This document shows, piece after piece, positions 4,594 to 16,864 of a DNA stretch of 64,000 nucleotides. Where the stretch lies: positions 188,290 through 252,289 of the forward strand of contig CAZYCL010000003.1 of the NCBI GenBank assembly GCA_964645795.1, given 5' to 3'. Both the position numbers and the translations under genes were made by a program. The DNA comes from an uncultured Planctomycetales bacterium (GTDB lineage Bacteria; Omnitrophota; Gorgyraeia; Gygaellales; Profunditerraquicolaceae). The first letter of the stretch is position 1. Every line of letters starts with the position of its first letter. The notes below the pieces were generated by a model. It made no database searches. It saw nothing but the letters and a program-made list of their open reading frames with translations, and was not told the DNA's origin.

Positions 4594-4630
4594 TCGGTTA
4601 CGGTTACGTATCGTTAGACGGTTTCGGTTA
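4594..4630. repeat. GGTTACG-heptamer-containing repeat upstream of lexA; same family as the repeats at 5232-5304 and 59739-59776
   Basis: cggttacggttacgtatcgttagacggtttcggtta. Confidence 0.35.
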
Positions 4631-5229
4631 TGGAGGCATGGATGGATTATAAGTTGACCCCCAAGCAAAAGAAAGTGCTGGATTTCATAAGGTTTGCCAC
4701 GCGCAAAAAGGCTGTGCCGACCATCAGAGAAATCGCGCAGGCCATGCATTTTTCTTCGACCGGTACGGTAAGAGACTATCTTAGGGCGCTGGAGAAGAAA
4801 GGATACCTGCGCCGCTTTAATAATAAATCCCGCGCCATCCAGCTCCTAAAGGGAGAAAAAATCCCCATACTCGGCACCATTACCGCGGGCGGCCCGGATC
4901 TGGCGGTAGAGGATGTCATCGGCTACCTTGACCCCCATGAGATATTGAATACCGAAAGCGGCGAGATCTTTGCTTTAAGGGTAAAGGGTGACAGCATGTT
5001 CGATGCCGGCATCCTTGAAGGTGACACCGCCATAATCAGGAAGCAGTCTACTGCCTATAACGGAGATATCATCGCCGCGCTCCTGGAAGGCAATGAAGTT
5101 ACCTTAAAAAGAATACGCATGAAATCCGGCCATCCGCCGTACCTGGAGCCCGCTAACAAGAACTACGAGCCGATCCACAAAGAATTCACTATCCTGGGAA
5201 GAGTGATAAATATAGTGAGAAACTACTGA
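4630..5229 (+). CDS. lexA: LexA repressor (winged-helix N-terminal domain + S24 peptidase C-terminal domain); probable true start ATG 4642 (RBS ggagg)
   Basis: N-terminal wHTH (LTPKQKKVLDFI...REIAQAM), Ala-Gly cleavage site (TAGGPD), catalytic GDSM and K in C-terminal domain. Confidence 0.8.
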   Translation: MEAWMDYKLTPKQKKVLDFIRFATRKKAVPTIREIAQAMHFSSTGTVRDYLRALEKKGYLRRFNNKSRAIQLLKGEKIPILGTITAGGPDLAVEDVIGYLDPHEILNTESGEIFALRVKGDSMFDAGILEGDTAIIRKQSTAYNGDIIAALLEGNEVTLKRIRMKSGHPPYLEPANKNYEPIHKEFTILGRVINIVRNY

Positions 5230-5697: not shown

Positions 5698-5781
5698 GGG
5701 TGACTTGGTGACCAGTTCAATTTTACTTACCGGGTGACTTGGTGACCAGTTCAATTTTACTTACCGGGTGACTTGGTGACC
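5698..5781 (+). repeat. Tandem repeat of 2.5 x 34 bp (GGGTGACTTGGTGACCAGTTCAATTTTACTTACC) ending 3 nt before the dinB ATG; each unit carries the GGTGAC-TTG-GTGACC motif
   Basis: Units start at 5698, 5732 and 5766; preceded at 5636-5674 by inverted-orientation copies (ggtcacc..ggtcacc..gtcaccggtgac). Confidence 0.6.
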
Positions 5782-5784
5782 ACG

Positions 5785-6936
5785 ATGATCCTACATGTAG
5801 ATATGGACGCCTTCTTTGCCTCCATTGAGCAGGCGATCAACCCGCGCCTAAAAGGCAAGCCTCTTGTGGTAGGGGCGCGGCCAAACAAACCCTACACCGT
5901 AGTCTGCGCTGCCAGCTATGAAGCCAAAGCCATGGGAATAGGCTCCGGGATGAGCGTAAGGGAGGCCCTGAAATTATGTCCGAACCTGGAGTTCGTAGCT
6001 GCCCAGCAGGAAAAGTATATCTATACTTCACAGGAGATCCTGAAGCTTTTAGAAGGCTACGGCTTTACGGTAGAATACCCCTCAATAGACGAATTCCGGC
6101 TGGATGTGCCTGATGAGCTGAACCAGGCAAAAATTGCCGCGGATATCCAGAGACAGATATATGCAAACTTTAACATTACCGCGTCCCTTGGCATAGCCCA
6201 CAATTGCCTGCTGGCAAAGCTTGCCTCAAAGCTCAATAAACCAAACGGCATTGCCTGTATCAATCAGGATAACCTCAAAGACATGCTTTCCCAAACAGCC
6301 GCGGAAAAGCTCTGCGGTATCGGTCCGCAAACCGCGCCCGTACTCCAGAAACTGGGTATAAAAACCTGCTTTGATCTGTATCAAAGATCCGCGCAATACC
6401 TACAGCAGCTATTCGGCAAAAACGGCTTAAACCTTTACCTGGGCTTACACGAAAAAGAAACCCTTGATGATGGCGCAACTCAGGAGTTGCCCAAATCAAT
6501 AGGTCATTCATACACCTTTCCCATGGCCTCAAAAAACCCGGGGTTTATAAAGGCCTGGATAAGGCTCTTATCTGAGATGGTGGCGCGGCGCTTAAGGCAG
6601 GCAGAGCTGGTATCAAAAACCGTACACGTATGGCTAAGCAGCCCGGATAAGGCAGGATTTGACGGCCAGAAAAGCTTCCAGCAGGCCACAAATGACGGAC
6701 TCGAGATCTACTCCAGGAGCCTTAAAATTTGCGCCAGAACCGGCCTTAGCCGGCACAAAATAAGGGCTCTAGGCATCTCTTGTAGCAGTCTTCAAAAGAG
6801 CTGCTACAAGCCTCTTTTAAAGGAAGAGATCCGAAGGGAGGAGGTGACCCGCGCATTAGATAGGATAAACTCCCGCTTTGGCGAAGATTCCATACATCCT
6901 GCCGTAACCTTCCTTGCCGCAAAAATGACGAAATAG
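5785..6936 (+). CDS. dinB: Y-family DNA polymerase IV (DinB/UmuC family); ATG at 5785, the ORF-track TTG at 5773 lies inside the repeat
   Basis: N-terminus MILHVDMDAFFASIEQ (catalytic DMD.FFA motif), SLGIAHN motif, little-finger domain; ~384 aa. Confidence 0.85.
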   Translation: MILHVDMDAFFASIEQAINPRLKGKPLVVGARPNKPYTVVCAASYEAKAMGIGSGMSVREALKLCPNLEFVAAQQEKYIYTSQEILKLLEGYGFTVEYPSIDEFRLDVPDELNQAKIAADIQRQIYANFNITASLGIAHNCLLAKLASKLNKPNGIACINQDNLKDMLSQTAAEKLCGIGPQTAPVLQKLGIKTCFDLYQRSAQYLQQLFGKNGLNLYLGLHEKETLDDGATQELPKSIGHSYTFPMASKNPGFIKAWIRLLSEMVARRLRQAELVSKTVHVWLSSPDKAGFDGQKSFQQATNDGLEIYSRSLKICARTGLSRHKIRALGISCSSLQKSCYKPLLKEEIRREEVTRALDRINSRFGEDSIHPAVTFLAAKMTK

Positions 6937-7108
6937 GGCCCTGTAATTTTTGCTTTCAATAAACATGCTTTTTACTCTGATGTCATCATCTAAAAGAAGA
7001 AGTAAAACCGAGTAAATTAAAAACCCCTTATCCACAGGGAAAAAACAAATACGCGTAAACTATCTGGTACCAGAATGTTGGGGCAAGATTACCAATATGC
7101 TCAAGTTA

Positions 7109-7136
7109 ACATAAGATACATTATAGGAAGTTGGCG
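7109..7136. repeat. Left attachment site: 28-bp dif-like 11-6-11 site (acataagatac-attata-ggaagttggcg) containing the 21-bp direct repeat
   Basis: Shares aagatac-attata-ggaagttg with the right site. Confidence 0.45.
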
Positions 7137-7191
7137 GAATGGAGAGAAAAATGGTGGGTAATGTAAGTAAGATCAAAAAGGCCCAAAAAGC

Positions 7192-7866
7192 ATGCCAAAA
7201 GATAAGCTTAAACCCGGGTTTGATCCTGTGTGGCAAAGCGATCTCTTGGATTTGCGCCAGATGTCCAGCAAGGCCTTTATTCTGCGGCAGATGTATAGAT
7301 CATACCGTAACCCAGAAACAAATATCTGCACCCTTTCCGAGTATCAAATCCAGGCCATTACAGGCTGGAATCGTCAAACCATACGCCGGGCCAAACATCA
7401 GCTTTTCTCTCTTGGCGAGATTGTGCCCCGGGGATCGTTCTCTTTTCTTGTAAAACCCTTCCACCAATTTAAAGACCAAAAAACAGGACAAGAATTGTCC
7501 TGTTTAGAAAACACCCCCCAGGACAAAAACTGTCCTACAATAGGACAGAAATTGTCCTACCAACAGGACAATAATTGTCCTAAAGTAGGACAAAAATTGT
7601 CCCCCCCTAATAATACAGATACAGACAATACAGATACAGATAGCGGTCTTTCATCTTCTTCTGTTGAAAAACCTGTTAATAAGCATGAAGGAAAAATCTG
7701 CGGAAATTGCCAAAACTATGACCGCGAGCATTTAGATACCAGGGGAAATAAAGACGGGTATTGCCCTATTTTAAAAATGAGCTGCCCCCCTTCTCTTAAT
7801 GCCGCGCTTTGCATAAATTTTAATAAACCCGAGCAGCCGGCCCAGCCGGCAGAAAGTGAGGTTTAA
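7192..7866 (+). CDS. Putative replication initiator (lambda O-like organisation): N-terminal HTH, linker encoded by the iteron array, Cys-rich C-terminus
   Basis: HTH-like segment LSEYQIQAITGWNRQTIRRAKHQLFSLGEI; five iterons inside the ORF encode a repetitive linker (GQELSCL/DKNCPT/GQKLSY/DNNCPK/GQKLSP); C-terminal CGNC...C...C. Confidence 0.4.
   Translation: MPKDKLKPGFDPVWQSDLLDLRQMSSKAFILRQMYRSYRNPETNICTLSEYQIQAITGWNRQTIRRAKHQLFSLGEIVPRGSFSFLVKPFHQFKDQKTGQELSCLENTPQDKNCPTIGQKLSYQQDNNCPKVGQKLSPPNNTDTDNTDTDSGLSSSSVEKPVNKHEGKICGNCQNYDREHLDTRGNKDGYCPILKMSCPPSLNAALCINFNKPEQPAQPAESEV
7485..7645. repeat. Iteron array: five 17-bp palindromic iterons AGGACA-N5-TGTCCT (starts 7485, 7520, 7542, 7565, 7588; mostly 22-23 bp spacing) followed by ACAGATA-type AT-rich repeats; putative origin of replication
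   Basis: aggacaagaattgtcct, aggacaaaaactgtcct, aggacagaaattgtcct, aggacaataattgtcct, aggacaaaaattgtccc, then taataatacagatacagacaatacagatacagata. Confidence 0.6.
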
Positions 7867-8469
7867 ATGGCTATTGAGGCAAAAAGGCAATGCGGTTATA
7901 GGAAAATAGGCGGTATTTACTTAGTGGGATCAGGCGAAGGTATTGTTTGCGATCGCCTTCCTTATCCTCTTGAAATTTGTCCTTGCTGTGGGGCCGGGAT
8001 CAAGCCAGCGCGCGGCTTTACCTGGATTCACGCGATAAAATTCTTCGGGGTCGGGCATCTTAATTGTAAGGATAGCGTTCCCGGGTGTCCAATATGTAAC
8101 CCCTTACCCGGAAAATATGGTTTGCTCTGGGTCGGCGATAAATTTTATACGCCGCAAGAATTTATCCAAGAGGCCCGGGACCTGGGGATATCCCGGCGTA
8201 TAGCACAAATTCCAAAGGGCTTAAAGCTGGGTGAAACCTGGATTTTGTTTGCACATAGAAAAGCTATCGTCAAGCCGCAGCCAGGCCCCGGCGAACTGTT
8301 TAAGGATATACCGGCCATCTTTTACGCTTTTCGGCCCCAGCGCATTGAAAAGATCATCAGCGAAAGCCAGGCAACCGAAAAGGCCCTGGCTGATCTGGAA
8401 AAGCGCGGCATTACGCCGGTTATTGTGCCAGATGATGACTCGGATCATCAACCCGGGGGCAAACAATGA
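7867..8469 (+). CDS. Hypothetical Cys-rich protein (element-encoded)
   Basis: 200 aa, start 1 nt after previous stop; CPCCG...CKDSVPGCPIC cysteine clusters. Confidence 0.4.
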   Translation: MAIEAKRQCGYRKIGGIYLVGSGEGIVCDRLPYPLEICPCCGAGIKPARGFTWIHAIKFFGVGHLNCKDSVPGCPICNPLPGKYGLLWVGDKFYTPQEFIQEARDLGISRRIAQIPKGLKLGETWILFAHRKAIVKPQPGPGELFKDIPAIFYAFRPQRIEKIISESQATEKALADLEKRGITPVIVPDDDSDHQPGGKQ

Positions 8470-8744
8470 TCGCCAAAATTATCAAGGTGCATGAGCAAAA
8501 GTCCTTCCTGGGCCAGTCCTTCTATTACATCTTTTTCAAAGGAAAGGACGGCCATAGTTATAAGACCTGCGCTTATCCTCAATTCGGCAATTATCCGCGC
8601 TGGCAGAAATTCATTGAGGCATTTCGCGCGGCCCAGGGAATACGTGAGGTCTGGCTTGACGGCCTAAATGTAATAGGCAAAAACCTTATAGACGCGGACA
8701 GCTATGCGCGCGAACTCCAAGAAAGCGAGGTGATTGGATACTGA
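8466..8744 (+). CDS. Hypothetical protein (element-encoded)
   Basis: 92 aa ORF, 4-bp overlap with the upstream gene, same strand as neighbours. Confidence 0.35.
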   Translation: MIAKIIKVHEQKSFLGQSFYYIFFKGKDGHSYKTCAYPQFGNYPRWQKFIEAFRAAQGIREVWLDGLNVIGKNLIDADSYARELQESEVIGY

Positions 8745-8840
8745 AAATAATTTTAATGATATTAGGCCTGGGGTTATCTCATCTTGTAGCTTTTGGGATC
8801 GGTTATTTTATCTGCGTTATAGTCAACTTCATCGGCGAAG

Positions 8841-9050
8841 ATGTGCCGGCCGATATACAGAAAGGAAATTAAGCAGATGTTTGCGGAAATACTAAAAGCG
8901 GCCGGGCTTAATCCGGATGATCTTAAACAACTCCCCGTTATTATCAAGGGCGCTGCCGACAACTTCCAGGAGATTAAAAACCTGTTGGCTGATAACAACC
9001 GGCTTTTAGGCGATATTCTGGAAGAATTGAAAAAACGAGGCGGTAAATGA
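8841..9050 (+). CDS. Hypothetical small protein
   Basis: 69 aa; gaaaggaaattaagcagATG context; operon-like packing. Confidence 0.3.
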   Translation: MCRPIYRKEIKQMFAEILKAAGLNPDDLKQLPVIIKGAADNFQEIKNLLADNNRLLGDILEELKKRGGK

Positions 9051-9247
9051 TTACCTTGTATAAAAAAGACAAAGAGGTTGATATTACTGTGATCTACGAA
9101 CACCAGGTAGGCGCTCAGCCAAAGATACAAATAACCGGCACTGGCAACTTGTCGCATCATTTGATAGAAGGACTTCTTGATACGTTTGATAGGTTATCCA
9201 AAATGGAAGATTGCTGCCATAGATCAAGCGAATGGAGAAAAAAATGA
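9047..9247 (+). CDS. Hypothetical small protein
   Basis: 66 aa; 4-bp overlap with the upstream ORF. Confidence 0.3.
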   Translation: MITLYKKDKEVDITVIYEHQVGAQPKIQITGTGNLSHHLIEGLLDTFDRLSKMEDCCHRSSEWRKK

Positions 9248-9370
9248 TCCTCTCCCCTGCCCCTTCTTGGCTGCCTTCTCTTGTCCAGCCGGAAGATTGG
9301 TTAATGGCCCAGATTTTGGTCATGCTTTTAGTAATAGGGGTCATTACTATCTTTTTTCATAGTAAAGGGG

Positions 9371-9613
9371 GTGATACCTATGGCCCACGCTTTTAAGTGC
9401 GATAAATGTGGGGAGTTCCACGAAGGCAGCGCCGATATGCAGGTCGGACTTGATAAGCGAGGCGAAACGATTTTAAGGCACACTCTTGGCCTGAAATTCA
9501 GCCCAGAGAACCAGGAAGCGCCGGTCTATCTTAAAGACTTGTGCAATAAATGCACTAAGGGTTTTTGTGCATGGATTAAAGGAGAATATGATGCTCAAAA
9601 CAGAAAGAGTTAA
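9371..9613 (+). CDS. Hypothetical zinc-ribbon protein
   Basis: 80 aa; CDKCGEFH ... CNKCTKGFC. Confidence 0.35.
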   Translation: MIPMAHAFKCDKCGEFHEGSADMQVGLDKRGETILRHTLGLKFSPENQEAPVYLKDLCNKCTKGFCAWIKGEYDAQNRKS

Positions 9614-10058
9614 AACTATTTGTGCAGCTTGCGGCAAAGAAGGCACGCGTGCGCTCAAGCCCGAACCTAAGACGGCCCGGGAGAAAAAAGAGATCGCCTT
9701 CCTTTGCCGATTTTGCGGCGCGGCAAACCTGCGCGACGGAACAGCAGTCTTGAGAGATAAGAAACCTAAAAAGCCCAAGCTGGCAGCCAGGCCAGCGCCA
9801 GAGAAATCTGCCCCCCGGCCTAAAGAACCTCAAGCCAGCCAAGAAATTCAGGCAGTCAGCCAGGAAACACCTGCCGAGCCGGGCCAGGAAAAACCAGGAG
9901 AAGTCCAGGACAAGCCTAATGTTTTTCCTTATCTTCTCCTGGGCGGCCTGGCGGCAGTCGCGGCTTTTATCCTGAAGAAGTCCAAGAAACCACAGGAAGC
10001 ACCTCAAGAGCCCCCTGCGCCCGGGCCCCAGGACTTCCTAAGATCAGTAAGGAGTTAA
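9591..10058 (+). CDS. Hypothetical zinc-ribbon / Pro-rich protein with C-terminal TM helix (ATG 9591 after RBS aaaggag; the ORF-track GTG at 9567 is unlikely)
   Basis: CAACGKEG...CRFCGAAN zinc ribbon; PKKPKLAARPAPEKSAPRPKEP low-complexity; hydrophobic LLLGGLAAVAAFIL. Confidence 0.4.
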   Translation: MLKTERVKTICAACGKEGTRALKPEPKTAREKKEIAFLCRFCGAANLRDGTAVLRDKKPKKPKLAARPAPEKSAPRPKEPQASQEIQAVSQETPAEPGQEKPGEVQDKPNVFPYLLLGGLAAVAAFILKKSKKPQEAPQEPPAPGPQDFLRSVRS

Positions 10059-10063
10059 AAACT

Positions 10064-10624
10064 ATGGCAAAGAAAAAAGAGGCGATTTTAAAAGACAAGA
10101 ACAATCTGCCACCTGCGCCTGCGCCAGAGCCGCCTCCTGGCCCCAAAGATACCCAGCCCAGCCCTGTAACAGCCGGGCCAGTCCAGGAGATTGCTGCGGA
10201 AATTCCTGTTGAAATTAAGCCTACCGGTGACTTAAAACGTATTGTTTACGGCGGCCTTAATTTCTGGCTGAATCGCCGCAAAGACCCTCTTTTGCAGGAT
10301 GATGAAAAGGCGATGCTGGCCGATCCTCTGGATAGGTTTGAGTATGAGATATTAAAGGCCCTGCCCGGCTGGCTGCGCGATCAATTCCAGAAATCCGGCC
10401 CCTTTGGTGGGCCCGCCCTGGAAACCGGCCTGGCGGTGATGATTATTCTTGACCGCCGTAAAAAGCCCAAACCGGCAAAGCCTCCAGCACCGGCAGCTCA
10501 AGAACCCGCTGCGCCAGAAAAGCCGGCGCCCGGGCAAGAACTAACGCAGGCCCCCCCTCTCTCTCCGGCCCCGCGCCGGCTGGACAAGGACAGCAGCCAT
10601 GAGATTTTTCGGCCATATCCTTGA
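10064..10624 (+). CDS. Hypothetical Pro/Ala-rich protein
   Basis: 186 aa; PPAPAPEPPPGP and AKPPAPAAQEPAAPEKPAPG low-complexity segments. Confidence 0.4.
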   Translation: MAKKKEAILKDKNNLPPAPAPEPPPGPKDTQPSPVTAGPVQEIAAEIPVEIKPTGDLKRIVYGGLNFWLNRRKDPLLQDDEKAMLADPLDRFEYEILKALPGWLRDQFQKSGPFGGPALETGLAVMIILDRRKKPKPAKPPAPAAQEPAAPEKPAPGQELTQAPPLSPAPRRLDKDSSHEIFRPYP

Positions 10625-10714
10625 AATCAACCTGGTAACCGGCGACTGGCTGCTTAAGGATTTAAGAGATCATCCTTACTATAAACCACCGGAAAACTGT
10701 CGGGTTTATCCGAT

Positions 10715-11353
10715 ATGATTAAGCAACGCGAGGTTGTTCTGGTAACCGGCAAGACTGGCTCTGGTAAGTCGACGCTTATGCGTAAGATGCTGGCAGATAA
10801 AAGGCGTTTAATCATCTTGGACATGATATCAGAATACCAGGATTTAAGGCCCCCCTTCCCTGCCCTGTTTATTCACGATATCGGCAAGCTTTATGACTAT
10901 CTGGCAGACCACCACGACAAAGATTTTCGGATCATCTTCGACCCGGAAGACCCCGAGCAAATTTTGGATCTCGCGGACGGATCAAAAATAACAGTTTTCG
11001 AGGAAGTTTGCAAGCTGGTCTATAATCACCTGAACAACGTGATCCTGGCAGTTGAGGAAATGGCGAATCTTATGCAGGGCAGCCGCGCCCCGGAATACCT
11101 GCGTAAGATTACCCGCTTCGGCAGGCACTCGTCTATTTCCTTGTGGGCCACAACCCAGCGGCCGGCAGATATTCACCCGGTTATCCGGGCGCAGATCACC
11201 AGGTTTATTTCTTTCAGGCAGCATGAGCCGCGGGATATTGACTGGATTAGGCAGATCATTGGCGTTGCGGCTGATGATCTAAAAAACCTTACGCCCTTTG
11301 TTTGGGGTAAGCCGATGATCGAGGGAAAACACTATAAGGAGTATACGCTATGA
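10715..11353 (+). CDS. P-loop ATPase (FtsK/HerA-type Walker A; candidate genome-packaging or assembly ATPase)
   Basis: 212 aa; Walker A VLVTGKTGSGKSTL, Walker B-like ILAVEEMANL; no TM segment; immediately upstream of the capsid-like gene. Confidence 0.6.
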   Translation: MIKQREVVLVTGKTGSGKSTLMRKMLADKRRLIILDMISEYQDLRPPFPALFIHDIGKLYDYLADHHDKDFRIIFDPEDPEQILDLADGSKITVFEEVCKLVYNHLNNVILAVEEMANLMQGSRAPEYLRKITRFGRHSSISLWATTQRPADIHPVIRAQITRFISFRQHEPRDIDWIRQIIGVAADDLKNLTPFVWGKPMIEGKHYKEYTL

Positions 11354-11541
11354 ACAAGGAACAAAAAAAATGCCCTTTTTTACTCGTCGGTATTCAACCG
11401 GCCAGGATTCCCGGCAATCCCCCTGTTCTTCTTCTGGCCGATTGTCTTGGCGACAAATGCGCGTTGTGGTCTAACTATAATTTAAGAGATACTGGGATCG
11501 GAACAGAACTCAAACCCGGCTGCGGATTGGTAAGATATTAG
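11350..11541 (+). CDS. Hypothetical small Cys-containing protein
   Basis: 63 aa; 4-bp overlap with the ATPase gene. Confidence 0.3.
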   Translation: MNKEQKKCPFLLVGIQPARIPGNPPVLLLADCLGDKCALWSNYNLRDTGIGTELKPGCGLVRY

Positions 11542-11554
11542 GAGAAAAAACAGC

Positions 11555-11740
11555 ATGAAGCGTTTTAGGCCCTGTATCTTCTGCGGTAAGCCGGTCAGGC
11601 AGTTTTCCTCAAAACCGCGGCGTTTTTGCTCGCGCTATCATTACAACCTTTTCATTAAATTATCACAGGCGCACTCGGAAGCCAAAAACGAGTTTTTAAG
11701 GGCTATCCGTCGAGAAAAACCTGCCCTGGTAGCCCCGTAG
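11555..11740 (+). CDS. Hypothetical small zinc-finger protein
   Basis: 61 aa; CIFCGKP...CSRYHY; basic. Confidence 0.35.
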   Translation: MKRFRPCIFCGKPVRQFSSKPRRFCSRYHYNLFIKLSQAHSEAKNEFLRAIRREKPALVAP

Positions 11741-11904
11741 GGCCACGATCTTATCAGTAGTCAATATCTAACACCCCTCTATTTTTTCCATCCTCGGAAA
11801 TGCTACTTTTCCGCCGGGATAACCCTTAAAAATTTCCTACCAATGGAAACTTCTCTCTTTGACTTTATAAAATAATGCGATAAATTTTAAGTGAGATTTG
11901 CGAA

Positions 11905-11950
11905 ACCCGGGCGCGGAAGAAATTCCTGCCCGGGTTTTTTCTTCCGCGCC
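11905..11950 (+). promoter_or_regulatory. Terminator-like hairpin with an overlapping alternative 12-bp helix upstream of the structural-gene block
   Basis: cccgggc/gcccggg stem + T6 (11906-11940); ggcgcggaagaa (11910-11921) is the perfect complement of ttcttccgcgcc (11939-11950); the two helices are mutually exclusive. Confidence 0.3.
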
Positions 11951-11969
11951 TACCAAAAGGAGAGGACAG

Positions 11970-12119
11970 ATGATTAAAGCGATCTTCAACGCGATAAAGG
12001 CAGAGGCAACTGTGCCTAAGCTAGTGGTGGATATCCTGGTGGTCGTAGGCGTGTTATGGCTTTTGGCGATCATGAAGAAAAACGGCATCGCCAAACAGAT
12101 TAATCCTCTGGAGGCCTAA
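11970..12119 (+). CDS. Small single-TM protein (ATG 11970 after RBS aaaggagagg)
   Basis: 49 aa MIKAIFNAIKAEATVPKLVVDILVVVGVLWLLAIMKKNG... Confidence 0.4.
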   Translation: MIKAIFNAIKAEATVPKLVVDILVVVGVLWLLAIMKKNGIAKQINPLEA

Positions 12120-12300
12120 GATGAGAGATAAAACGATCACTTTTTTAATGTTTATAGGCGCGATCCTGGCAACCGGCTTTATTCTTGACGAGCTGGGGAA
12201 TCAGGGCCGGCTCGGTGATGTAGGCAAGGCCATAGCCAAGAAGATAACGGCTGGATATGGCGCGTAACGTAAATTTAACCCCTTAACAAGGAGAAATCCC

Positions 12301-13152
12301 ATGTATAGACAAATCATCAAACAACCGAACATCAGAGGCATTGCTGCCGGCGCAGTAGCAACCGGCGAAATCCCGACGACCGGCACGCACTACGGAACTT
12401 ATCTGCGTTGCCTTACCTCTGCCGGCGTAGCCCTTACCGCGGCTGAAATCAAGGCCGATGTCGGAAATATCATTATCCGCATTAACGGCCAGCAGATTGT
12501 AGAAGCAAGCGCTACCTTCTTGCTCGATTTGCAGAAGTATTACGGTGACGCCTTCGGCGCTGGCAACGTCAGCGGCATAATCCCAATAATCTGGGAGAGG
12601 CCGCATTTAGCCACTTTCCCCGAACGCGCAGTTACTGCTCTGGGAATGGCTAACGTTTCGAGTTTTACTGTGGACGTTAACGTGGTGGGGGTAGTTAAAC
12701 TTGCCTCTATTGAGGTTTTGAGCATGGTTTCCCCCGAAATCCGCAATCTCGGCCAGCATATCCGTATCAGCAAATTCCCGCAGAGCTTTGCTACAACCGG
12801 CCTGCAGGAAATTACCACGCTGCCGAAGGAAGGCAACGATGTCGGTTATCTTGCTATGCACATCGAGGAATCCACCGGCACGATATCCAAAGTAACCTGC
12901 AAGCTCGGCGGCCTCAACATCTTCGAGGAAGTTGATCCTAACCTCGACGAGGTTATCTTAAAGAGAGAACGCAGAACGCCGCAAACCGGATATTTCCACG
13001 TCGATTTTTCAGTTTCCAACGATATGTCCGGCTATATTCCTATGGCTGGCGTTCAGGACTGGCGGCAGCAGATCACCTGGACAACAGCAGCGCCCAATAA
13101 CTATAACATCTACACCGAGCGCATCTTTAGCCTGGGTAACGCCAAGAAATAG
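12301..13152 (+). CDS. Candidate major capsid protein (beta-rich, 283 aa; size and context compatible with a PM2 P2-like double-jelly-roll MCP)
   Basis: Strong RBS aaggagaaatcccATG, strong terminator directly after, highest-expression signature in the element; follows the P-loop ATPase; no database homology can be checked here. Confidence 0.45.
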   Translation: MYRQIIKQPNIRGIAAGAVATGEIPTTGTHYGTYLRCLTSAGVALTAAEIKADVGNIIIRINGQQIVEASATFLLDLQKYYGDAFGAGNVSGIIPIIWERPHLATFPERAVTALGMANVSSFTVDVNVVGVVKLASIEVLSMVSPEIRNLGQHIRISKFPQSFATTGLQEITTLPKEGNDVGYLAMHIEESTGTISKVTCKLGGLNIFEEVDPNLDEVILKRERRTPQTGYFHVDFSVSNDMSGYIPMAGVQDWRQQITWTTAAPNNYNIYTERIFSLGNAKK

Positions 13153-13174
13153 AGCTGCTCGTAGGTATAGCATA

Positions 13175-13210
13175 ATCAGGGGCAGCTTTATGAGCTGCCC
13201 CTGATTTTTA
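13175..13210 (+). terminator. rho-independent terminator after the capsid-like gene
   Basis: Perfect 13-bp stem atcaggggcagct / agctgcccctgat, 5-nt loop, then tttt. Confidence 0.65.
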
Positions 13211-13223
13211 AAAGGGGGCCTTC

Positions 13224-13508
13224 ATGGATTTAGGTAGCATAGCAAACACAATCGGTAGCTGGTCTAAGCAGCTCGTCAGCGTATTTGACAACGGCTGGAA
13301 TATATATCAAAACGTGCAGGACCGTATTGATGCGATCGAGGCCATAGACAACGAAACTGTCCAGCCGGCCGCAAAAAGTAGCTCGCCTATCAGCTTTGAA
13401 ATGGATATCGGAAAACAGACCCAGGCCGCAATTAATACGATCTCTTATGTTTTGATCGGCGCCGGGATCATTGTCTTGCTGATTATTATTCTTTCCAGGC
13501 GAAAGTGA
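13224..13508 (+). CDS. Small membrane protein (C-terminal TM helix + basic tail)
   Basis: 94 aa; ...ISYVLIGAGIIVLLIIILSRRK. Confidence 0.4.
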   Translation: MDLGSIANTIGSWSKQLVSVFDNGWNIYQNVQDRIDAIEAIDNETVQPAAKSSSPISFEMDIGKQTQAAINTISYVLIGAGIIVLLIIILSRRK

Positions 13509-13517
13509 GGCCGGGGA

Positions 13518-13736
13518 ATGGCTCTTGATCCGAAATCCATACTTTCAAACCTCACTAATAGCCCGCCTTCTTTTACTTCCGGGGCCCGGGCAGATGCCTT
13601 TTCCGATGCTACAACCCGCGTTGATTACTCTACCGGCTCTTTTTCCGTCGGCGGCTCAAGTAACCTAAATACCCTTTTCTGGATAGCCGGGGCAATTGCC
13701 CTTGTTTTTATCTTAAAGGAGTTTTTTAAGAAATGA
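13518..13736 (+). CDS. Small membrane protein (C-terminal TM helix + basic tail)
   Basis: 72 aa; ...LFWIAGAIALVFILKEFFKK. Confidence 0.4.
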   Translation: MALDPKSILSNLTNSPPSFTSGARADAFSDATTRVDYSTGSFSVGGSSNLNTLFWIAGAIALVFILKEFFKK

Positions 13737-14146
13737 TAACCGATATCGCCGTTAACTTAAAGCGCATCCCCTGGGGCCCGGAAATCGAGGCTTCGGTAGA
13801 GCGGCTTAACCCGGTCTACGGTGTTACGGTTTTAAAAGCAAAAGTAGAATCCGGCGCGTTCGGCCTCTTTGAAATAAGCGTGGAAGATCGCCGCCTGGGG
13901 GTGTTAATTACCCGCCTGGACACCATGCTTGACGGCTCAAAGGAGCTGGTTATAATGCACGCCGTCGGTGATTTTAAGACTTCTCAAAACCTCGTAGGCG
14001 TATTAAGTTTTGCCTTTGACAACCTGGCCCGGATGCACAAGGTTAAAGTGATCCGCGTGCATACCAGCCGGCGCGGAATGGATGCGCTGCTGGAAGAAAA
14101 CGGTTATCAATTTATAGAAAATGTTTATAAAAAAAGGATAGATTAA
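13733..14146 (+). CDS. Hypothetical protein (possible acyltransferase-like fold)
   Basis: 137 aa soluble protein; 4-bp overlap with upstream gene. Confidence 0.3.
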   Translation: MITDIAVNLKRIPWGPEIEASVERLNPVYGVTVLKAKVESGAFGLFEISVEDRRLGVLITRLDTMLDGSKELVIMHAVGDFKTSQNLVGVLSFAFDNLARMHKVKVIRVHTSRRGMDALLEENGYQFIENVYKKRID

Positions 14147-14530
14147 ATGTCGCAGAGCGAAAGCGAAAGCAGCTCCTCTACAACTACGACAACGCAGCAA
14201 TACGATCAGCGCGTAGGCGCGGAAGGCGGCGCGATCGCCATAGGGTCAGGGGCCCAGATAAGCATCAACGAAGAATTCGGCTCAAATGTGGCCCAGGCGT
14301 TTAATCAGCTTATTTCTCTGGCCCGGGATGCCGGCCAGCTCGTTGATACGCTTAATAAGACAACCCAGGACACTACGACTAAGGCCGTTGATCTCCTGGC
14401 AAAACAGGTCGAACGATCGGAAAAAGGGGCCTCTACGATCTATACCGATATATTTCCGTATGTAGCCGCGGCAATTATCGGGATTGTGGCGATTTTTATT
14501 TTTATAAATTTTTCAAAACGTAAGAGGTAA
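14147..14530 (+). CDS. Small membrane protein (Ser/Thr-rich N-terminus, C-terminal TM helix + KRKR tail)
   Basis: 127 aa; SESESSSSTTTTTQQ...; ...YVAAAIIGIVAIFIFINFSKRKR. Confidence 0.4.
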   Translation: MSQSESESSSSTTTTTQQYDQRVGAEGGAIAIGSGAQISINEEFGSNVAQAFNQLISLARDAGQLVDTLNKTTQDTTTKAVDLLAKQVERSEKGASTIYTDIFPYVAAAIIGIVAIFIFINFSKRKR

Positions 14531-14534
14531 AACT

Positions 14535-15134
14535 ATGGATGCCATAACGCTTGAGAATGTATATCAATTTTTCCGTCGGACAATAGCAGCCGGTGAAACC
14601 GCCAAGATAAACGCCTGGGGCAACTATGTTACGCTGCTCTCCAATAGCGGCAGCAATAATATCTTTATCTCCATAGGCGGCCAGCCCATGCAGGAGATGC
14701 CTTTTGGCTTGTCTGTGGCCCTTCCGCACGATGCGCGATTTAAATATCTCGAATTCTACAATAGCGCGGGCGTTTCGGTAACCATAGAGTTTACCGTATC
14801 GGCCGGATTAGTGTCCGATAACCGCAGCGTTATCAACTCAACCCTGGTTGTTGATCCTTCATCCGACGGCCTTGCGACGCCGGCAGCCATTACCGTAAAT
14901 ACCGCAGCCCCTGGAGCGGCCACAATTGCCGCGGACTCAACCCGGCGCGAGGTAATTATCCAGAACAACGGCGCAAATCCTATTTGGGCCGGCGATGCCA
15001 ATGTTGACGGCGCAAATAACCGCGGCATCTTAATACCTATCGGCCAGGCCATTGTTTTATCTACCCAGGCCGCGATTTACCTGCGATCAACCGGTGGGGC
15101 ATCTACCGCCTCAACAATGAACTTAACGAGGTAA
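14535..15134 (+). CDS. Hypothetical structural protein
   Basis: 199 aa, Ala/Thr/Ser/Gly-rich, predicted beta; inside the structural block. Confidence 0.35.
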   Translation: MDAITLENVYQFFRRTIAAGETAKINAWGNYVTLLSNSGSNNIFISIGGQPMQEMPFGLSVALPHDARFKYLEFYNSAGVSVTIEFTVSAGLVSDNRSVINSTLVVDPSSDGLATPAAITVNTAAPGAATIAADSTRREVIIQNNGANPIWAGDANVDGANNRGILIPIGQAIVLSTQAAIYLRSTGGASTASTMNLTR

Positions 15135-15136
15135 AA

Positions 15137-15703
15137 ATGAGTGGAGCTTTTGGGGTAAATACCTTTAATTTTATAAAGTTGACAATGCAGGCGGCGGCTC
15201 CAGGAACGCCAGATTTAGGGGCGGTAATCTACGCAAAATCATCTTCGGCCCGGGTTGTTGATGGAGCTTATACAATAACGCCGGCATTTACCGACGGAAG
15301 CATCGCAAACCTTCTTGATGGAAATGTATCAACATACGCCCAAAATGTGAACGCCCTACCTCATACTTTTAAGGTCGACTTTGGCGCTGCCAGAAAAATT
15401 AATCGCTATGGATTCGGGAACTGGGATGCTAGCAACGGCGGCCAGCCGAAAACCTGGACTTTTGAGGGATCAAACAATGGCACAGATTGGACAGTAATAG
15501 AAACCCGGACAAACGAAGCCCAGCGGGCTAGTGGCGCGTCGTTCTATTTCGATATCGCCGAGCAGAATTACCGCTATTATCGCTGGGTTGTTACGGTAAC
15601 TTGGGATGCAACTTATATCGGCGGTGAGCTGTATTTGTATTCGCCGCGGACTGATTTTTTCGCAAAGAATGATGCTGGAACTGAAAAACAGCTAACACCA
15701 TAA
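15137..15703 (+). CDS. Discoidin/F5-8 type C (galactose-binding-like) domain protein; candidate receptor-binding or spike protein
   Basis: 188 aa; KVDFGAARKINRYGFGNW...WTFEGSNNGTDWTVIE...YRYYRWVVT typical of discoidin-domain carbohydrate-binding modules. Confidence 0.4.
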   Translation: MSGAFGVNTFNFIKLTMQAAAPGTPDLGAVIYAKSSSARVVDGAYTITPAFTDGSIANLLDGNVSTYAQNVNALPHTFKVDFGAARKINRYGFGNWDASNGGQPKTWTFEGSNNGTDWTVIETRTNEAQRASGASFYFDIAEQNYRYYRWVVTVTWDATYIGGELYLYSPRTDFFAKNDAGTEKQLTP

Positions 15704-15717
15704 AAGCGAGGTTTTCT

Positions 15718-15933
15718 ATGCCCTTGATGATCGCTATTCCCATTATAACCGGCCTGGCCGCTTTATTTGTCGGTAGTCAAATAGAAAATAAAATAGACAA
15801 CCCGACACAACCGATTACCGGGGCCCAGCAGACAACCCCGCCCTGGTATATTTCGGTCGCGCTCCTTGTTGTTCTGGCAGTCGCCGGTATTCTGATCGTA
15901 AAAGGTTTACTTAAAAAAGCTAAATTAGCTTAA
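15718..15933 (+). CDS. Small membrane protein (two hydrophobic segments, basic C-terminus)
   Basis: 71 aa; MPLMIAIPIITGLAALFVG...ISVALLVVLAVAGILIVKGLLKKAKLA. Confidence 0.4.
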   Translation: MPLMIAIPIITGLAALFVGSQIENKIDNPTQPITGAQQTTPPWYISVALLVVLAVAGILIVKGLLKKAKLA

Positions 15934-16041
15934 AGGAGATCAACTATGATTATCGTCTGGCTTGCCCTCGCGTTCGCTGCCGGCGCTCTCTGCGCTTTTG
16001 TCTATCTTGCAGTTACCAGCCAGTTAAGGCTTAAAGCATAA

Positions 16042-16302
16042 ATGGAACTCCCCGACGCGAAAAAATGGTTTACCGGATTTTTTGACATTACGCGCTGGAT
16101 AAAAGACGGCGGCACACTAATCCGGCTTTTATTGATCGCCGCGGCTATTTGGCTGCTGGCCCTGGGCGCCGGCAGAATAAAGCAGCTCTTTTTCACTCCC
16201 CCAGCTCCCCCGCAGATTCAGGGGGTTAGCGGCGGCAAGGTGAGCGTGGACAATTCGCAGCAGAAGGTAAAAAACAAAATAGGAGTTTTTAACTTATGGT
16301 AA
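16042..16302 (+). CDS. Small membrane protein
   Basis: 86 aa; LIRLLLIAAAIWLLALGAGRIKQLFF hydrophobic helix. Confidence 0.3.
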   Translation: MELPDAKKWFTGFFDITRWIKDGGTLIRLLLIAAAIWLLALGAGRIKQLFFTPPAPPQIQGVSGGKVSVDNSQQKVKNKIGVFNLW

Positions 16303-16371
16303 AGAGCGCGGAAATGAAAGGCTGGATGAAGGCAATAGTCGTCGGCGTGGTTACTTCGGTTATAGCGACCA

Positions 16372-16581
16372 TTGTTATCAAAAAATTCATTGATAAAAAT
16401 GGACAAGCTCAAGCTGCAGTTTGACGAAGGCATTAACGTTGACACCCTTACCGGCCGGACTGTGCAGAAATCGGTTTATATTGAATCCGGGGCCCGGCGT
16501 ATCTACATAGGCATCAATACCCTGGTTGAGATATGCGATTATTTAAGATCGCAAGGAATACGGATAACGCCAGATGTTTAA
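16372..16581 (+). CDS. Hypothetical small protein
   Basis: 69 aa ORF in the element. Confidence 0.25.
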   Translation: MLSKNSLIKMDKLKLQFDEGINVDTLTGRTVQKSVYIESGARRIYIGINTLVEICDYLRSQGIRITPDV

Positions 16582-16804
16582 AAAGATAATGGAAAAATTA
16601 CGCTGCAATCCCCTGGCCTGCTTTACGACCTTTTTTATTATTAACGGCCTTCTGTTTGCATGGATAAAAACCGATATTGTGGAGATGCGGGGTATTCTTT
16701 ATAAAATTTTAGCCGGCGAATACCGAAAAACCGTTGAAATAGGCCCTACAACGCAAAAACTCGCCCAGATAGCACCCTACCCTGGCTTACGCCAAAACAA
16801 TTGA
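16574..16804 (+). CDS. Hypothetical small membrane protein
   Basis: 76 aa with hydrophobic segment CFTTFFIINGLLFAWI. Confidence 0.25.
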   Translation: MFKKIMEKLRCNPLACFTTFFIINGLLFAWIKTDIVEMRGILYKILAGEYRKTVEIGPTTQKLAQIAPYPGLRQNN

Positions 16805-16864
16805 AATTTGGCCAAGAAAACTGCCTCAAAACCTACCATTTAAAATGCGCTGCTGGGGCTTTTG

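Follow-up and report, generated by a model that had tools for sequence, protein, structure and literature searches.

An iteron array inside the initiator gene of a PM2-like prophage as its probable replication origin

The prophage and its integration site

The window, by which we mean the whole 64-kb stretch of DNA analysed here, contains an 11.0-kb element (7113-18112) lying between exact 21-bp direct repeats (Table 1). One ORF of this element (12301-13152) matches the profiles P2_C (3.1e-20) and P2_N (2.8e-9) of the PM2-type P2 capsid protein, both above the Pfam cut-off. A second (10715-11353) encodes a small FtsK/HerA-type packaging ATPase (phrog_2666 at 5e-31, plus DUF87), and many small membrane-type ORFs accompany them. 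Judged by this gene content, the element is a tailless, PM2-like (Vinavirales) prophage. Pfam and PHROG searches of its genes revealed no integrase, helicase, primase or loader and no ParA/ParB-type gene. A loader gene was not recognised after the initiator gene either, the ORFs at 7867-10624 having no Pfam or PHROG replication matches, and the gene directly after the initiator is not conserved among relatives. This gene, a Cys-rich ORF of 200 aa immediately 3' of the initiator (7867-8469), matches no Pfam or PHROG profile, and three related loci (L001, L002 and L007) have no counterpart of it at the equivalent position. The sole minus-strand gene of the prophage (16865-17764) encodes 299 aa with predicted membrane segments at 34% GC. 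It has no family match, is absent from the relative L002 and is probably a cargo (moron) gene.

Near the right end of the prophage, a strong promoter (17835-17862) precedes a small HTH_17 gene (17870-18070), whose likely start, ATG 17870, leaves it almost leaderless. In the excised circle this unit immediately precedes attP and the initiator gene. The same order of HTH_17 gene, attP and initiator gene is found in L002 (L002 3050-3350), a non-integrated relative contig that joins window position ~18066 to ~7113. Integration therefore separates the initiator gene, and the putative origin within it, from this promoter. The stretch from attL to the start codon of the initiator yielded no sigma-70-like promoter. 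Purine-rich repeats of the GGAAG/GGAGA/GGTGA type are conserved between the att core and the initiator start (window 7126-7165, L001 5-45, L002 3340-3380 and L007 3360-3410) and may constitute a regulatory or Xer-accessory site.

The left junction has the structure GTTAACATAA-GATACA-TTATAGGAAGT and resembles the reverse complement of E. coli dif, a 28-mer attested in the literature. The element has the features of an IMEX: a dif-like 28-mer marks one end and an incomplete copy the other, and no integrase was found. Since the element lacks an integrase, it probably integrates via the host XerCD recombinases, as its junction sequences also suggest. In four related loci (L007, L011, L012 and L015) the dif-like 25-mer lies beside unrelated host genes, and in L013 it is inverted. 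Double jelly-roll (DJR) prophages of the dif type have been described previously (PMC12715192). On the host side of attL, lexA (4630-5229) and a dinB-type polymerase gene (5773-6936) read toward the initiator gene with no obvious terminator between. The order lexA-dinB-prophage also occurs in the Omnitrophota MAG contig L007, and SOS-driven read-through into the prophage is conceivable from this layout.

Table 1. Positions of the features at the prophage ends and in the initiator gene (window coordinates)
Feature	Position	Strand	Basis
attL core	7113..7133		Direct repeat; with left flank (7105-7133) forms dif-like XerD arm, centre and XerC arm
Initiator gene, 224 aa: winged helix, disordered linker, 4-Cys module	7192..7866	+	ORF list, PHROG, AF2 model
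Winged-helix domain coding, aa ~20-90	7249..7461	+	AF2 pLDDT 85-96, Foldseek
Iteron 1, AGGACAAGAATTGTCCT	7485..7501		Pattern search and locus comparison
Iteron 2, AGGACAAAAACTGTCCT	7520..7536		Pattern search and locus comparison
Iteron 3, AGGACAGAAATTGTCCT	7542..7558		Pattern search and locus comparison
Iteron 4, AGGACAATAATTGTCCT	7565..7581		Pattern search and locus comparison
Iteron 5, AGGACAAAAATTGTCCC, one arm mismatch	7587..7603		Pattern search and locus comparison
A-rich ACAGATA repeat tract, encodes TDTD	7608..7645		Repeat finders; AATACAGATACAGA twice
C-terminal 4-Cys module coding (C170, C173, C191, C207)	7699..7812	+	Alignment, AF2
Promoter TTGACA-N16-TATAAT and small HTH_17 gene	17835..18070	+	Sequence; Pfam HTH_17 4.1e-10
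attR core	18092..18112		Exact 21-bp direct repeat of attL

The initiator gene and its iterons

An earlier note on this DNA had described the product of the initiator gene as an HTH-like N-terminus, a linker and a Cys-rich C-terminus, and structure prediction agrees with this picture. An AF2 model from 3 sequences was poor, and a PDB fold search with it was not significant. With an alignment of 12 sequences, the N-terminal domain alone became confident (pLDDT 85-96). It is predicted to form a winged helix with helices at residues 26-38 and 50-57, a recognition helix at residues 61-74 and a wing at residues 77-87. Residues 92-172, which correspond to the part encoded by the iterons and the ACAGATA tract, are predicted to be disordered (pLDDT ~30, and <40 in the array-encoded linker). 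The C-terminal module is modelled as a small beta-type fold with short strands (pLDDT 61-70), and its four cysteines are invariant in the 12 sequences.

Profile searches link the protein weakly to phage initiators. Its best PHROG match is the DnaD-like loader family phrog_186 (5.5e-5), followed by weak matches to O-like profiles (1.6e-3 and 9.6e-3). More distant members of the family score better with the same profiles (DnaD-like 3.2e-10, O-like 2.9e-7), which suggests a kinship with the O family that is remote only. BLASTP of the window protein against lambda O was not significant. The alignment of a 30-sequence profile to lambda O by hhalign reached a probability of 58% (E 1e-4) and spans both linkers. 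Searches of Pfam gave no match at E <= 0.1, including Phage_rep_O, Rep_3 and the N- and C-terminal DnaD domains, and a profile search of PDB sequences returned noise only (bL32 zinc ribbons at E 0.25). With Foldseek, the matches in the PDB were generic wHTH regulators, among them the plasmid initiator 4pta, and the structural neighbours in BFVD were phage replisome organizers and replication initiators (E 3.5e-4 to 2e-3). Two other identities were considered and rejected. A plasmid Rep_3 protein was set aside for want of a Rep_3 match in Pfam, and a PM2 P12-type HUH Rep because the 224 aa contain no HxH (His-hydrophobic-His) motif and match no RCR Rep profile in Pfam or PHROG.

Across the family, the N-terminal winged helix and the repeat-encoded linker are kept and at least four unrelated C-terminal modules alternate, the 4-Cys module occurring in only some of the members compared (P0011, P0013, P0015, P0024-P0027, P0032 and P0046). 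Such C-terminal modularity is what would be expected of a recruitment domain, and the comparison suggests that a domain recruiting a host factor has been swapped between family members. The 4-Cys module is presumed to be this domain in the window protein.

A pattern search with AGGACANNNNNTGTCCT (AGGACA-N5-TGTCCT) located five 17-bp dyads at 7485-7603, of which four are exact and the fifth has one mismatch (TGTCCC at 7587-7603). The search found no further site in the 64-kb window and no second array was found in the element. By chance, 0.06 matches would be expected, and 0 of 100 shuffles reached five. TRF detected a 22-nt period over 7520-7602, and a repeat finder was in agreement. All five dyads lie inside ORF 7192-7866 (gene positions 294-412, codons ~98-137), in line with what the earlier note had claimed. 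Its count of spacings needs correcting: it gave four of five spacings as ~22-23 bp, and five sites have only four spacings (35, 22, 23 and 22), three of which are about two helical turns. When one base is added on each flank, the window sites become 7-N5-7 (17/19-bp dyads). In iterons 2-5 the half-sites are ~11 bp apart, leaving the dimer register ambiguous from the window alone; the relatives decide it in favour of dyads with A-rich spacers. Neighbouring iterons fall in different reading frames, with the period alternating between 22 and 23. Because the frames differ between adjacent iterons and the encoded peptide is predicted to be disordered, selection acts on the DNA rather than on the peptide. 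A promoter and terminator scan around the initiator gene was uninformative, its 'terminators' being the iterons themselves.

The array is followed by the ACAGATA tract, in which repeat finder and TRF place two copies of AATACAGATACAGA at 7612-7640. The earlier note had called this tract AT-rich; the repeat is indeed present, and its AT enrichment is moderate (62% AT at 7604-7645). The tract is the least stable 40-mer inside the initiator gene and ranks at about 500 of 11,000 windows (top ~5%) in the prophage. Less stable DNA is found in several intergenic regions of the prophage, such as 17773-17832 with 85% AT. The tract may serve as the DNA-unwinding element or as the binding site of a conserved factor.

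Arrays at related loci

Relatives of the initiator are rare: only 21 were found in 5.8 billion clusters, and an exhaustive HMM search of 1.84 billion representatives yielded 36. A tblastn search against 50,697 phage records returned nothing, and no relative was found by a scan of IMG/VR contigs. We compared ten loci with an intact gene (the window, L001, L002, L007, L008, L009, L011, L012, L013 and L014) and one decayed locus (L015). The earlier note had named homologues lacking the repeats as evidence that would count against its view. All nine further intact loci carry an array at the same codons, and the sole array-less homologue is the pseudogene L015. The view of the note thus survived this check, and we regard the comparison as the decisive evidence. 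The decayed initiator of L015 (9930-10340) occupies the same dif-like site amid different host genes; a stop codon interrupts it in frame near its start, and a deletion has removed the iterons, the ACAGATA tract and the CxxC.

The ten intact loci carry 48 iterons in total, with 3-5 dyads each, a 7-N5-7 geometry and an A-rich spacer. The iteron centres lie at ~300-303, 335-338, 358-361, 381-383 and 403-406 nt downstream of the start codon; the L014 centres are displaced by ~+9-10 nt (312-413), which we attribute to extra N-terminal residues. The first gap of 34/35 bp is kept in 10/10 loci and is followed by a spacing of 22/23 bp three times, a pattern held even at 34% protein identity. The linker peptides encoded by the arrays are not conserved among the relatives. 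L002 and L009 are near-identical, yet have three and five iterons, respectively, owing to a 45-bp, 15-codon indel. The alternating 22/23 period is explained by the fact that two periods preserve the reading frame.

The sequences of the arms differ from locus to locus, and nine different arm sequences are present among the ten loci (Table 2). Within sites, the two arms are complementary at 290 of 336 positions (86%). Between loci, the arms are on average 46% identical, compared with 69% for the adjacent wHTH-coding DNA, and the window arms are 7-49% identical to those of the other loci; the neighbouring wHTH-coding DNA is 61-78% identical. The combination of high complementarity within sites and low identity between loci indicates that both arms have changed together, nine times over. 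Thus, as far as sequence comparison can tell, the arms co-evolve within an element and diverge fast between elements, and the geometry and the ACAGATA tract are fixed. Tracts of this type follow the array at all ten loci and are conserved across lineages, in contrast to the arms. They take the form of ACAGATACAGATA-type tracts 3' of the array in relatives, with identical ACA/GAT codons in the four closest lineages.

Table 2. Half-sites of the iterons at the ten intact loci, read from the outside to the centre
Locus	Half-site
Window	TAGGACA
L001	TTGTCGG
L009 / L002	TTGCGCC
L007	TAGAGCC
L008	TTGCGGG
L011	TTTAGGG
L012	TTTCGCA
L013	Left arm TTTAGCA, right arm TTTCGCC
L014	TTTTGCA

Changes in the half-sites are accompanied by changes in the winged helix. 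An arginine at residue 61, the first of the recognition helix, occurs with G at half-site base 3 in 5/5 loci, and L/Y61 occurs with T in 4/4; this correlation may reflect two clades rather than nine independent events. In L009 and L007 the helix begins identically (GWHRRAIR) and the half-sites have the same core, GMGCC. In several arrays the same arm mismatch recurs in every copy: in L011 the left arm is TTTAGGG and the complement of the right arm TTTCGGG, and in L009 TTGCGCC is paired with TTGAGCC. These are C/A clashes and not G-U wobbles.

Readings of the array and its surroundings

The earlier note had likened the locus to lambda O, and the comparison is apt, as the array is a near-exact geometric match to ori-lambda. 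The latter consists of four TCCCTC-AAAAC-GAGGGA sites at O-gene positions 349-433, spaced at 20, 24 and 23 bp and followed by an A-rich tract. Both arrays are thus built of 6-5-6 inverted repeats with A-rich centres (AGGACA-AAAAC-TGTCCT in the window) at a spacing of about two turns (22-23 bp in the window), and an A-rich tract comes after the iterons in both. They also share a mid-gene location (gene positions 294-412 in the window), in the segment coding for the linker that joins a DNA-binding N-terminal domain to a C-terminal domain for recruitment, a role presumed in the window protein. As in lambdoid and Stx phages, the iteron number differs between close relatives with the protein length changing in frame; lambda and Stx phages have four and six iterons, respectively, with 13 extra residues (PMC7466680). 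The window protein differs from lambda O in that it is not detectable as a member of the Pfam O family and reaches only the hhalign probability given above. Furthermore, the array here has five sites, the first of them set apart by 34-35 bp, four cysteines mark the C-terminal module, no P-like loader gene follows, and the carrier is an ~11-kb tailless DJR prophage, lambda being a tailed phage.

A second parallel is SPP1, in which gp38 (G38P) binds repeats within its own gene 38 (oriL) that adjoin an AT-rich unwinding element (PMC6316719). Repeats internal to the initiator gene and an adjoining tract are found in both, and the best profile of the window protein is the phrog_186 family named above. 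SPP1 differs in its direct repeats, its second origin oriR and its own loader and helicase, gp39 and gp40 (PMC6316719). In contrast, the window element has dyads, a single array and no loader or helicase gene that could be found. Iteron plasmids (RepA, pi, TrfA; Rep_3) have direct, non-palindromic iterons outside the rep gene and initiators with two WH domains. The array resembles theirs in its multiple phased, putatively initiator-binding repeats beside a candidate unwinding element, repeats that in these plasmids set incompatibility, and differs in that the dyads are inside the gene and the protein has no Rep_3 match. Among the Vinavirales, replication modules include DnaD-like wHTH initiators (Yutin et al. 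2022, PMC9502842), and those of PM2-like prophages are often swapped, possibly as a result of incompatibility (Krupovic & Bamford 2007, PMC1950889). By initiator type, the element is like these viruses in combining a P2 capsid protein and an FtsK/HerA-type ATPase with a non-RCR, wHTH-type initiator. Neither paper mentions iterons or an origin inside a gene (PMC9502842, PMC1950889), and our literature search found no paper combining 'iterons' with 'double jelly-roll'.

We propose, with a probability of about 0.78, that the array at 7485-7603 and the ACAGATA tract form the vegetative theta-type origin of the ~11-kb prophage, located inside its own initiator gene. This proposal is supported by comparison, not by experiment, in that from the anatomy of the locus and the covariation of protein and site we infer binding, melting and recruitment. 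Dimers of the 224-aa protein would bind each dyad via the winged helix, as suggested by the dyad symmetry and by the protein/site covariation. By analogy with lambda, the four phased sites and the fifth, one extra turn off, could then assemble into a bent O-some-like complex. Its stress on the supercoiled circle would open the adjoining A-rich ACAGATA tract, and the 4-Cys module would bring in a helicase or loader of the host, as the element has no gene for either. Binding within the gene could also reduce the initiator's own expression, and since the sites are lineage-specific, the array should also set incompatibility and titrate the initiator. That replication is of the theta type is an assumption made from the type of initiator, PM2 itself being a rolling-circle replicator. 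We count in favour of an in-gene origin that the element appears to have no RCR Rep, no helicase or loader and no second array. The 62% AT of the tract, the weak O and DnaD links of the window protein and the missing downstream loader gene count against it.

The modest AT content of the tract bears on a second explanation, in which the product of the gene does bind the dyads, but these act only as operator, handcuffing or incompatibility sites and the true origin lies elsewhere, for example at 17773-17832. This interval, and not the DNA adjacent to the iterons, is the least stable of the prophage, and in the excised circle it lies ~0.6 kb upstream. Plasmid iterons serve control and initiation alike, and lineage-specific arms would fit a role in incompatibility equally well. 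However, the AT-rich stretch at 17.8 kb adjoins the cargo gene that is absent from L002 and overlaps the promoter region, whereas the ACAGATA tract beside the array is retained in lineages whose arms differ. Moreover, iterons, flanking tract and initiator gene together have the layout of the proven lambda and SPP1 oriL origins (PMC7466680, PMC6316719). On balance, we regard a purely regulatory role for the dyads as unlikely.

It is very unlikely, in our estimate, that the repeats serve some other protein or process, whether as a packaging signal recognised by the FtsK/HerA-type ATPase, as a partition centromere or as a binding site of the HTH_17 protein. No mechanism of DNA recognition for packaging is known in PM2-like viruses, and the element does encode a second DNA-binding protein at 17870-18070. 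Nevertheless, the site covaries with recognition-helix residues of the very protein whose gene holds the array, and in L015 the array and the gene were lost together. A partition site in particular was rejected because the element has no ParA/ParB-type gene that Pfam or PHROG could detect. Least probable of all are RNA or ssDNA hairpins (attenuation, mRNA stability or a rolling-circle/single-strand origin) or a by-product of a repetitive peptide: single-strand folding of the segment is far above that of shuffles (z = -8.4) and PM2 itself uses rolling-circle replication (PMC1950889), but so strong a fold is a trivial consequence of palindromes, the recurrent C/A arm mismatches of L011 and L009 weaken hairpins and suit degenerate protein half-sites, no Rfam family came near threshold, the initiator lacks both the motif and the profile match of an RCR Rep, and the peptides are not conserved, with adjacent iterons in different frames.

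If the array is the origin, as we propose, the gene and its iterons would be a candidate replication module with a probable origin for tailless, membrane-containing prophages whose replication is uncharacterised, a group that occurs in Omnitrophota-type MAGs and metagenome assemblies. The lambda design, with the origin in the disordered linker of the initiator gene, would then recur in a different virus realm. The in-gene arrangement is classical; what is added here is a natural series of nine specificities on one scaffold. These nine site/protein pairs with identical geometry offer a series for re-targeting a winged helix, with residue 61 against base 3 as the lead. They also offer a way to ask if incompatibility between DJR prophages that share a host is set by the specificity of their origins, and the gene with its array is a candidate minimal replicon for hosts without genetic tools.

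A broader reading joins these observations with the position of the promoter, and we hold it to be rather unlikely as a whole. It combines at least nine orthogonal initiator/iteron pairs on one scaffold, diversified by incompatibility between co-infecting tailless phages, with a prophage origin that is silent by design until excision or read-through from lexA-dinB. Xer integration at attP falls right between the sole strong promoter of the element (17835-17862) and the initiator gene with its putative origin. On this reading, the origin would fire once excision has reunited the two, or when transcription reads through from the SOS-controlled lexA-dinB operon of the host, which is just upstream here and in L007. 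Replication would in that case be coupled to excision or DNA damage without a repressor.

Several further observations concern the host DNA around the prophage. The window contains a single perfect DnaA box, TTATCCACA, at 7028-7036, ~80 bp outside the left end of the prophage on the host side. By our own estimate 64 kb should contain about 0.5 perfect 9-mers, and the box may be due to chance. DnaA boxes were rejected as a mark of the origin, the perfect one being outside the prophage and near-matches occurring at about chance level. Up to ~16 kb every long ORF is encoded by the plus strand, beyond ~20 kb most are encoded by the minus strand, and the GC skew turns negative after ~17 kb; this switch in strand and skew is consistent with a replication terminus at the dif-like site. 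GC skew, which the earlier note had suggested as a check, was uninformative for an origin in the 11-kb prophage and reflects the chromosome terminus, because the prophage sits at the dif-like site where chromosome skew and gene orientation change. Finally, the region at 42-58 kb has a low GC content (0.33-0.44) and a run of minus-strand ORFs, and is possibly a horizontally acquired cluster.
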